DNA of 64,000 nucleotides. Origin: Escherichia coli. Its GTDB lineage: Bacteria; Pseudomonadota; Gammaproteobacteria; Enterobacterales; Enterobacteriaceae. The notes below the pieces were generated by a model. It saw only the letters and a list, made by a program, of their open reading frames with translations. It was not told where the DNA came from and made no database searches. Location: the NCBI RefSeq assembly GCF_016903815.1, contig NZ_CP069973.1; one strand, written 5' to 3'. Below are positions 22,004 through 24,747 of this stretch, in pieces; position 1 is the first letter of the stretch, and every line of letters begins with the position of its first letter. Made by a program: the position numbers and the translations under genes.

Positions 22004-23098
22004 TCACGCGACGGCTTTGCCGTTACGCACAAAAACAGGTTTTGTCACTTTAACCGGCATTTCACGGTTGCGAATTTGCACAATCGCCGTTTCGCCAATA
22101 CCTTCCGGCACGCGCGCCAGCGCAATGCTGTAACCCAGCGTCGGGGAGAAAGTACCGCTGGTGATAATGCCTTCATGCTGGTTGCCCTGCGCATCGGTAA
22201 AGCGTACCGGCAGTTCATTACGCAGCACGCCTTTTTCGGTCATCACCAGACCAACCAGTTTTTCTGTACCATGCTCACGCTGCACTTCCAGGGCTTCACG
22301 ACCGATAAAGTCACGATCTGCCGGTTCCCAGGCGATAGTCCAGCCCATGTTGGCGGCTAAAGGAGAAATAGTTTCGTCCATCTCCTGACCATAAAGATTC
22401 ATGCCCGCTTCCAGACGCAGCGTGTCACGCGCGCCCAAGCCACATGGCTTAACACCCGCTTCCACCAGCGCACGCCAGAAATCGGCCGCTTTTTCATTGG
22501 GCAGCGCAATTTCATAGCCCGCTTCACCGGTATAACCAGTGGTGGCAATAAACAGATCGCCCGCCTGCACGCCAAAGAACGGTTTCATCCCTTCCACCGC
22601 CTGACGCTGGGCGTCATTAAACAGTGTGGCAGCTTTTGCCTGCGCATTCGGCCCTTGCACGGCAATCATGGAAAGGTCATCACGAACGGTAATTTCGATG
22701 CCGAAAGGTTCAGCGTGTTGGGTAATCCAGGATAGGTCTTTTTCGCGGGTGGCGGAGTTAACAACGAGGCGGAAGAAATCTTCAGTAAAGTAGTAGACGA
22801 TGAGGTCATCTATCACACCGCCAGAGGCATTCAACATCCCCGAGTAAAGGGCTTTGCCGCTTTTGGTGAGCTTCGCCACATCGTTCGCCAGCAGATAACG
22901 CAGAAACTCCCGGGTGCGGCTGCCGCGGAGATCGACGATGGTCATATGTGACACATCAAACATTCCGGCATCGGTACGTACCGCATGATGTTCGTCGATT
23001 TGCGAACCGTAATGCAGCGGCATCATCCAGCCGTGGAAATCCACCATGCGAGCGCCGCAAAGCGTGTGTTGTTCGTACAAAGGAGTCTGTTGTGCCAT
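22004..23098 (-). CDS. gcvT: Aminomethyltransferase, glycine cleavage T protein (start at [11 protein letters not shown]; the longer ORF N-terminus is leader)
   Basis: 364-aa protein matching GcvT. Confidence 0.94.
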
Positions 23099-23470
23099 CT
23101 TGTCCTCATTGAATAAGCGGGGCTGACAACTTTTCATGGTGAAATTATCACCACGAAACCCAGCATCGGAGCCACTCCCGGTCCCCAACGCAATCGTTCT
23201 CTTTTGCCTGAACTTACCACCGAAACAGACTGTTAACCATAAGGTAAAATTGATCATCACATTAGCTTATGGTTAAAAAACGCCAAAATCGCGACAGAAT
23301 AAAAAACCAAAAAACACACCAGTTTCTATATAAAGATGATGCCATTAGAAAGCTAATTTGAATAAGGCAATATTAAGAGCTAAAAAAATGTCAAAAAACA
23401 CTAAATCAAAAAATAATGACATTAGAAAATATAATGCGAAAACGGAGGTGAAATTAGTTTATTTCAAATG
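23099..23470 (-). promoter_or_regulatory. gcvTHP promoter/control region: long AT-rich upstream tract with repeated CATTAG/CTAAT motifs
   Basis: CATTAG at 23343 and 23420, CTAATT at 23353, ATTAG at 23453, embedded in A/T-rich DNA with A-tracts; position upstream of gcvT fits the known GcvA/Lrp-controlled region. Confidence 0.55.
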
Positions 23471-23544
23471 AGGAAAATCTCCCGGCGAAAAAACCGGGAG
23501 ATGAAAGTGTGATGGGTATCAAATAAACAGCAGAAGAGAAATTT

Positions 23545-24747
23545 TTAACGCAGCCATTCAGGCAAATCGTTTAATCCCATTGCCTGGCGGATAAGTTGCG
23601 GCTTAACGCCAGGAAGCGTGTCGGCCAGTTTCAAACCAATATCACGCAGCAGTTTTTTCGCCGGATTGGTACCGGAAAACAGATCGCGGAATCCCTGCAT
23701 ACCAGCCAGCATCAGCGCCGCACTGTGCTTGCGGCTACGCTCATACCGGCGCAGGTAAATGTACTGCCCGATGTCTTTCCCCTGACGATGCAACCGTTTC
23801 AGTTCAGCAATCAGCTCTGCAGCATCCATAAAGCCGAGATTTACTCCCTGCCCCGCCAGCGGGTGAATGGTATGCGCGGCGTCGCCCACCAGCACCAGAC
23901 GGTGCGCGGCAAACTGGCGCGCATAACGCCCCGTCAGTGGGAACACCTGACGCGCGCTCTCAACCTTGCATAAGCCCAGGCGATTATCAAAAGCGATATT
24001 TAACGCGCGATTAAATTCATCTTCACTTGCCTGCTGCATCCGCTGCGCTTCCTCTGGCGACAGTGACCAGACAATTGAGCAAAGATGCGGATCGCTAAGC
24101 GGTAAAAAGGCCAGAATGCCTTCGCCATGGAAAACCTGCCGCGCCACCGCATCATGCGGTTCTTCCGTGCGAATGGTCGCTACCAGCGCGTGATGCTGAT
24201 AATCCCAGAAAGTCAGCGGAATATCTGCTTTGTTGCGCAACCAGGAATTAGCACCGTCCGCGCCAATCACCAGACGCGCCGTTAACATGCTGCCATCTTT
24301 CAGCGTCAGGAAAGTTTCATTTTCTCCCCAGGCGACCTGCTGTAATTCTGCGGGGGCCAACAGAGTGATATCTGACGACTGCTGCGCTTTGTTCCACAGC
24401 GTGTAGTGAATCACTGAGTTTTCAACGATATGCCCAAGATGGCTATAGCCCATGCTTTGATCGTCAAACGAAATGTGACCAAAACTGTCTTTGTCCCACA
24501 CTTCCATACCGTGATAACAACTGGCCCTACGAGAGAGAATGTCCTGCCAGACGCCAAGACGGGTGAGTAATTTTTCGCTGGCGGCATTGATAGCCGAAAC
24601 GCGCAGTTGTGGTGGTGCATCCGCCGCCAGAGGTTCCGGTACGCGCTGCTCCAGTACGGCAACGCGTAAGCCGCTCCCCTGTAAGCCGCAGGCAACCGCC
24701 AGCCCCACCATGCCGCCACCAACAATGGCTACATCAACACTTTGCAT
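23545..24747 (-). CDS. ubiI: FAD-dependent 2-octaprenylphenol hydroxylase UbiI (VisC)
   Basis: 400-aa ORF; N-terminal GxGxxG FAD motif (VAIVGGGMVGLAVA), flavin monooxygenase family. Confidence 0.92.
   Translation of the reverse strand: MQSVDVAIVGGGMVGLAVACGLQGSGLRVAVLEQRVPEPLAADAPPQLRVSAINAASEKLLTRLGVWQDILSRRASCYHGMEVWDKDSFGHISFDDQSMGYSHLGHIVENSVIHYTLWNKAQQSSDITLLAPAELQQVAWGENETFLTLKDGSMLTARLVIGADGANSWLRNKADIPLTFWDYQHHALVATIRTEEPHDAVARQVFHGEGILAFLPLSDPHLCSIVWSLSPEEAQRMQQASEDEFNRALNIAFDNRLGLCKVESARQVFPLTGRYARQFAAHRLVLVGDAAHTIHPLAGQGVNLGFMDAAELIAELKRLHRQGKDIGQYIYLRRYERSRKHSAALMLAGMQGFRDLFSGTNPAKKLLRDIGLKLADTLPGVKPQLIRQAMGLNDLPEWLR

Follow-up and report, generated by a model that had tools for sequence, protein, structure and literature searches.

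Three conserved GcvA-type cores in the gcvT–ubiI control region of Escherichia coli, and a lineage-specific palindrome that is most likely incidental

The 446-bp intergenic region at positions 23099–23544 of the 64-kb stretch of Escherichia coli DNA that we analysed (64,000 nucleotides; hereafter the window) is the gcvT–ubiI intergenic region. It corresponds to the classical control region of gcvTHP, the glycine-cleavage operon, which is already known as a textbook case of LysR/Lrp loop regulation. Taking all lines of evidence jointly, we consider it highly probable that the conserved ATTAG/CTAAT boxes of this region are the cores of three GcvA sites and that a further, palindromic occurrence of the motif between them is most likely incidental.

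Results

The region upstream of gcvT is the gcvTHP control region

The region lies between two open reading frames (ORFs) on the minus strand, 22004–23098 and 23545–24747. Many E. coli chromosomes match a 651-bp query that spans it at 100% identity, and in such chromosomes RefSeq names the two flanking genes gcvT and ubiI. The original prediction, which placed the sequence upstream of gcvT and read it in general terms as the control region of the gcv operon, was thus correct on both counts. The gcvT gene (22004–23098, minus strand; from the ORF list and RefSeq) begins with an ATG at 23096–23098, as indicated by the ORF list, the translation and the RefSeq annotation of a 100% identical strain, and the upstream gene, ubiI, ends with a stop codon at 23545–23547 (minus strand; from the ORF list and RefSeq). 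The query is present as a single copy in 5425 of 5426 complete E. coli genomes. One of the 5426 is without a match to the region, and in another the match lies on a record labelled as a plasmid.

The description of about 370 bp of A/T-rich DNA upstream of gcvT holds for positions 23241–23477, which are 27% GC, and fails for the 142 bp that adjoin gcvT (23099–23240; the 5′ untranslated region (UTR) and core promoter), which are 48.6% GC. A scan of 22900–23700 with the Rfam covariance models at E ≤ 1 returned two noise matches only, with no riboswitch and no small RNA; specifically, the 5′ UTR gave no Rfam match to the glycine riboswitch, which is the usual form of gcvT control in many other bacteria.

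We infer that gcvT transcription starts at 23203 ± 2, a placement that follows from a conserved extended −10 element and from a CRP-like site at 23508–23523, and that gives a 5′ UTR of ~105 nt (23099–23203, minus strand). The extended −10 element (TGgTAAGTT; 23211–23219, minus strand), which we recognised by reading the sequence, is 80–100% conserved among 63 Enterobacteriaceae sequences and is accompanied by a weak −35-like TGGTTA (23234–23239, minus strand), likewise found by reading. A sigma-70 and terminator consensus scan missed this promoter, with its extended −10 and weak −35, and also missed the ubiI terminator. Overlapping the inferred start is a 16-bp PurR-operator-like palindrome (ACGCAATCGTTCTCTT; 23188–23203, about +1 to +16) that has two mismatches to ANGMAAACGTTTKCNT and is conserved across genera; we assign it to PurR on the basis of the literature. 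The CRP-like site (TGTGATGGGTATCAAA) has one mismatch to TGTGA-N6-TCACA, a pattern whose matches across the whole window are not above chance, and it is centred ~312–313 bp ahead of the inferred start, in the gap that separates the ubiI stop codon from the terminator of that gene. The TCACAC half of this site (sense strand) is ~90–100% conserved across Enterobacteriaceae, and the assignment of the site to CRP leans in part on the literature. The intrinsic terminator of ubiI, which we located by folding and as an inverted repeat, is a hairpin, ATCTCCCGG-N8-CCGGGAGAT, followed by a U-rich tail (23477–23502, minus strand); the hairpin has a minimum free energy of −17.6 kcal/mol (z −6.2) and directly abuts GcvA site 1.

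The 5′ UTR also contains an A-run (23130–23137, with an indel at ~23131) that has the A4 form in the window and in the T43 and RIVM alleles, and the A5 form in K-12 and most others. In the A4 allele an upstream ATG (23137–23135) is in frame with gcvT, 13 codons upstream of it. In the A5 allele of K-12 this ATG opens a separate 10-codon upstream ORF that ends in the gcvT Shine-Dalgarno region, and the gcvT frame itself is interrupted by a stop at the equivalent place. The upstream ATG is preceded by no obvious Shine-Dalgarno sequence.

Three conserved CTAAT boxes correspond to the predicted cores of GcvA sites 1–3

The motifs on which the original prediction was built are present where it had placed them, namely CATTAG at 23343–23348 followed by four nucleotides (AAAG) and CTAATT at 23353–23358, a second CATTAG at 23420–23425 and an ATTAG at 23453–23457. 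It had overlooked a further CATTAG at 23260–23265, which is the promoter-proximal box of site 3. On the gcvT-sense (minus) strand the boxes read CTAAT(G), with the CTAAT core at 23265–23261, 23425–23421 and 23457–23453 and also, within the palindrome, at 23348–23344. Counted post hoc against dinucleotide-preserving shuffles, ATTAG/CTAAT occurs five times in 23099–23470 where 0.86 occurrences are expected (p ~6e-4), and CATTAG/CTAATG three times where 0.18 are expected (p ~8e-4). The Stauffer laboratory defined the GcvA consensus as T-N11-A containing 5′-CTAAT-3′ (PMC3658693). In DNase footprints GcvA protects stretches of 35 bp and 57 bp upstream of gcvTHP; CTAAT is common to the protected sequences and was shown by mutagenesis to be needed for binding, and the ATTA-n7-TAAT that these sequences contain has been refined by comparative analysis to ATTAG-n5-CTAAT (PMC5002191).

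The three boxes other than the palindrome (23260–23265, 23420–23425 and 23453–23457) map onto the predicted cores of GcvA sites 3, 2 and 1, respectively. Site 3, delimited by an inverted repeat and by conservation, is a block at 23233–23276 (minus strand, about −30 to −73) with a CTAATG core at 23265–23260 (−57 to −62 counted from the inferred start); nearly every Enterobacteriaceae locus has the CTAAT box at the orthologous position, and the site 3 core is embedded in a 15-nt inverted repeat, TTAACCATAAGcTAA / TTAcCTTATGGTTAA. Site 2, identified by a dyad scan and by conservation, is the dyad ATTAG-AAAAT-ATAAT at 23421–23435 (about −218 to −232; ATTAT-ATTTT-CTAAT on the sense strand). It is the sole intergenic match to ATTAG-N5-CTAAT at ≤1 mismatch, having one mismatch, and in most other genera the same site is a perfect CATTAG-N5-CTAATG dyad. 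Site 1 is a block at 23445–23474 (minus strand) that is ~90–100% conserved across genera, with its CTAAT core at 23457–23453 (about −250 to −254). Sites 1 and 3 each have a single good CTAAT half-site, and the boxes of sites 2 and 1 lie ~160 and 192 bp further upstream than that of site 3.

Two repeats that involve these sites are worth recording. The arms of the site 3 inverted repeat (23233–23247 and 23262–23276; TTAACCATAAGGTAA / TTAGCTTATGGTTAA) are 93% complementary over 15 nt, are strongly conserved across genera and have their centres ~29–32 bp apart; we know of no earlier description of this sequence as a dyad. An exact 10-nt direct repeat, GGTGAAATTA (sense TAATTTCACC), occurs at 23138–23147 in the gcvT 5′ UTR and at 23447–23456 across the site 1 core and its flank, and is probably due to chance, since the copy in the UTR is only moderately conserved.

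We take the published footprints on this promoter to run from −34 to −69 for GcvA at site 3 and from −214 to −271 for GcvA at sites 2 and 1, with Lrp covering −92 to −229, CRP centred near −313 and PurR lying over the transcription start. Counted from a start at 23203 ± 2, all three conserved boxes would lie within these presumed GcvA intervals, and the palindrome (−141 to −154) would lie beyond them. The evolutionarily invariant blocks, 23203–23280 and 23420–23477, coincide with the same presumed footprint limits. PMC5002191 gives lengths of 35 and 57 bp for the GcvA footprints, which is consistent with the intervals assumed here.

The operators are held in place while the spacer between them drifts

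To compare strains we picked 12 E. coli alleles across the range of identity and aligned them. None of the three boxes varies among these alleles, and the variation is almost wholly confined to 23281–23419, with abrupt edges at 23280|23281 and 23419|23420. In unbiased counts over 5425 genomes made with equal-length 71-mers, the block containing the promoter and site 3 (23205–23275) is identical to the window in 5241 genomes and the block containing sites 2 and 1 (23420–23490) in 4145, with no genome below 95% identity for either. The corresponding spacer block (23315–23385) is identical in 1166 genomes, and falls below 95% identity in 3949 and below 90% in 2036.

The AT-rich spacer (23281–23419, about −78 to −216), which we delimit by variation and conservation and which is ascribed to Lrp binding and bending, drifts in sequence about as fast as the third codon positions of ubiI, yet keeps a constant length. 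Among the 12 alleles, 28% of spacer sites are segregating and pi is 0.098, as compared with 28% and a pi of 0.083 at ubiI third codon positions and a pi of 0.004–0.018 in the operator blocks; there is no indel column in the spacer despite its six A-runs of six or more. It is this combination of a diversity equal to that of ubiI third positions with an absence of indels that leads us to regard the spacer as free in sequence and fixed in length. A variation hot spot at 23413–23419 (AATAATGA versus TACGATGA and similar) reaches precisely to where the CATTAG core of site 2 begins, giving the operator a sharp evolutionary edge.

The same organisation is seen across genera. A GcvT scan gave 80 Enterobacterales loci, and a conservation profile was drawn over the 63 Enterobacteriaceae sequences. 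The CTAAT boxes recur at orthologous positions in the Enterobacterales loci, and the conserved blocks are 23473–23420 (sites 1 and 2), 23274–23234 (site 3) and 23224–23186 (the −10 element, the start and the PurR box), whereas the intervening spacer is poorly conserved. In all 53 sequences that have both anchors, the cores of sites 1 and 3 are either 193 bp (35 sequences) or 192 bp (18 sequences) apart, with no other value, and the cores of sites 1 and 2 keep a distance of 32 bp that extends to Erwinia, Pantoea and Rahnella. The interval between site 3 and the ATG, by comparison, varies between 124 and 239 bp. A fixed spacing of the operators together with a drifting spacer fits the published model, being what a loop between distal and proximal operators separated by an architectural spacer would predict.

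A scan for the Lrp SELEX consensus YAGHAWATTWTDCTR gave one match with three mismatches in the spacer (23295–23309), and across the window gave 69 matches where 72 are expected by chance. The phased A-tracts that had been proposed were not borne out, as the AA periodicity at 10–11.5 bp is reached by 35% of shuffles and the sole signal, a peak at 9 bp, is marginal and uncorrected. Homopolymers in 23241–23477 are distributed unevenly between the strands, with 11 runs of four or more A on the plus strand and no run of four or more T, such that all T-runs are on the gcvT-sense strand; the lengths of these A-runs are the same in all 12 aligned E. coli alleles. A short conserved island at 23329–23336 (sense CTTTAT, plus strand TATAAAG) stands within the otherwise unconserved spacer and may serve either as a contact for Lrp or as a −10-like element that drives plus-strand transcription towards yqfI. 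Position 23331 within it is polymorphic in E. coli.

The ATTAG-N4-CTAAT palindrome is a strain variant within the spacer

The perfect palindrome ATTAG-N4-CTAAT at 23344–23357 (about −141 to −154), which we found by exact matching, is confined to a lineage. It is absent from K-12, the source of the footprints, where the plus strand reads GTGATGAGAAAGTCAATT, as well as from O157, ST131, UPEC and other alleles, which carry GTGATGAGAAAGTTAATT; the T43 allele has the left half only, and single-base differences in the two half-sites are at 23345 (T/G) and 23353 (C/T). Strain IAI1 is an example of a carrier of the palindrome allele. An exact 40-mer containing it is present in 1198 of 5426 genomes (~22%), with 295 more at one mismatch. 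It is also absent from the Escherichia clade outgroup (L014), from the GTDB E. coli representative (L013) and from other genera, which indicates that it is derived, and the conservation of the window base across genera at its columns is 0–0.3. We conclude that the palindrome most likely arose incidentally within a lineage through two to five point substitutions, and that GcvA probably does not use it as a regular operator. An origin by gene conversion from site 2 was considered and set aside: the left half and its flank match the flank of site 2 at 17 of 20 positions now, as compared with ~15 of 20 in the common allele, and a rise of this size is too small to point to templated change.

The principal alternative is that the palindrome is a genuine fourth GcvA site in the middle of the loop, which would alter the geometry of the loop or the strength of control by glycine and purines. 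Several features of the sequence speak for this. The palindrome joins a CTAAT and an ATTAG half without mismatch, and no other exact dyad of this kind occurs in the 64-kb window; besides the 17 of 20 matches between its left half with flank and the flank of site 2, its right half (AAGCTAAT) reproduces the core of site 3; and at about a fifth of complete genomes the allele is a common one. Its CTAAT core is 83 bp, or ~8 helical turns, from that of site 3, and as sites 1 and 3 work with one good CTAAT half, weak binding of GcvA is conceivable. However, the halves of the palindrome are separated by N4, 1 bp short of the canonical N5 that is seen at gcvB and, for most genera, at site 2, and the palindrome is accordingly not matched in a scan for ATTAG-N5-CTAAT. 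Furthermore, the stretch in which it lies changes as fast as third codon positions do, the 14-mer is only two substitutions away from the common allele, and the palindrome is missing from K-12, the clade outgroup and other genera. On balance we regard a functional fourth site as unlikely, and the stronger proposition, that about one fifth of E. coli genomes have gained, through a few clustered substitutions, a perfect palindrome of the GcvA type at the centre of the loop that rewires glycine and purine control, as likewise unlikely.

We therefore favour the reading of the palindrome as an incidental variant, and the proposal in the original prediction that the ATTAG half-sites are GcvA boxes divides accordingly. 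It holds for 23420 and 23453, which belong to sites 2 and 1. It does not hold for the motif at 23343–23358, which is not conserved and is unlikely to be a footprinted GcvA site: it is absent from K-12, from ~78% of E. coli genomes and from other genera, has a spacing 1 bp short, and lies in the spacer that is ascribed to Lrp.

yqfI overlaps GcvA sites 2 and 1

The distal operators are overlapped by yqfI (23388–23471, plus strand; from RefSeq and the K-12 annotation), a gene for a 27-amino-acid small protein that runs antisense over GcvA sites 2 and 1. The original prediction had not included this annotated gene, which covers two of its boxes. Its product in the window is MSKNTKSKNNDIRKYNAKTEVKLVYFK, which differs from that of K-12 by G11D; codons 9–11 are hypervariable among E. 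coli strains. The YqfI protein has been detected in K-12 by epitope tagging (PMC6001520). The ORF is intact in Escherichia only, having a stop at codon 7 in Citrobacter and, in other genera, no start codon as well as stop codons. Outside Escherichia a C-terminal “NAK..VKL.YFK” nevertheless persists in translation, which only reflects the conserved GcvA sites, whose reverse complement encodes it. Since the DNA is kept where the yqfI ORF is broken, the conservation of 23420–23471 is explained by the operators rather than by the peptide, and yqfI looks like a young gene that may have arisen on top of conserved operator DNA.

The presence of yqfI raises the possibility that the palindrome, together with the TATAAA-like island (23329–23334, plus strand), forms the promoter or leader of yqfI, such that the differences between strains tune YqfI rather than gcvT. 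The palindrome does lie 31–44 bp upstream of the yqfI ATG, and the short island (~23331–23336) is conserved across genera within a variable spacer. This conservation nonetheless extends more widely than yqfI itself, which is confined to Escherichia; a consensus scan detected no sigma-70-like promoter upstream of yqfI, the sole plus-strand match being inside the ORF; and YqfI is detected in K-12, which lacks the palindrome. We consider this explanation very unlikely.

That the ATTAG motifs bind no protein at all, and are by-products of base composition or of the yqfI coding sequence, is scarcely credible: although the AT-rich part is only 27% GC and two of the boxes fall within the annotated yqfI ORF, shuffled sequences yield 0.86 motifs where five are observed, the boxes are kept at a fixed spacing where the yqfI frame lacks a start or contains stops, and CTAAT is the published, mutagenesis-supported core of GcvA sites (PMC5002191).

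Discussion

Our analysis indicates that the region between gcvT and ubiI in the window is the known gcvTHP control region, with three predicted GcvA cores at conserved positions. In the published loop model, GcvA and GcvR form a repression loop in the absence of glycine with the help of an Lrp-assisted bend, and glycine frees GcvR and allows GcvA to activate (PMC13104608). Applied to the window, and following the literature for these steps, the model would place GcvA on both the distal and the proximal sites; GcvR would act as its co-repressor and Lrp would bend the intervening AT-rich DNA, thereby giving the repression loop. Glycine would then release GcvR, and GcvA at the proximal sites would activate the extended −10 promoter, which would be activator-dependent. 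PurR at the start site and CRP further upstream may add purine and carbon inputs.

The closest comparison is with gcvTHP of K-12, for which GcvA sites 1–3, the Lrp region, PurR and CRP were described by the Stauffer laboratory and which is the same locus as that in the window. The promoter, 5′ UTR, site blocks, CRP-like site and terminator are identical or nearly so between the two, and the three CTAAT cores are at the same positions; base 3050667 of K-12 (NC_000913.3) is the counterpart of 23098 in the window. The differences are that the 5′ UTR of the window has one A fewer, that codon 11 of yqfI encodes Asp instead of Gly, and that the spacer allele has seven differences in the 71-mer 23315–23385, which have created the ATTAG-N4-CTAAT palindrome in the window.

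Two other systems help to place the arrangement. At the divergent gcvA/gcvB promoter, the gcvB site of K-12 (ATTAGTTTTTTTAAT; L093, 326–340) is of the ATTAG-n5-CTAAT type, like site 2 of the window. In contrast to the gcvA/gcvB operator, the sites at gcvT are split into a proximal site and a pair ~160–190 bp upstream that, according to the literature, work via a loop; moreover, sites 1 and 3 at gcvT have one good half-site each, and the palindrome of the window has an n4 spacing. The gcvT region is also reminiscent of araBAD with AraC and of loops assisted by Lrp or IHF in that it has distal and proximal operators, a strict spacing between them (192 or 193 bp here) and an AT-rich spacer of fixed length. 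The predicted loop at gcvT differs from these examples in relying on a LysR-type regulator that works together with a distinct co-repressor protein, GcvR.

Taken together, the invariant operator blocks, the 192/193-bp spacing and the neutrally drifting spacer of fixed length constitute a comparative footprint that independently backs the published loop model. The palindrome illustrates, for its part, that the most striking motif in a reading of raw sequence can carry the least meaning, being in this case a drifting strain variant. Should GcvA bind it after all, it would represent a natural, lineage-specific change in the geometry of the loop and in the control of one-carbon metabolism by glycine and purines. 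In either case the palindrome is a common natural allele that could be used to probe how well the gcvTHP loop tolerates an additional operator-like sequence.
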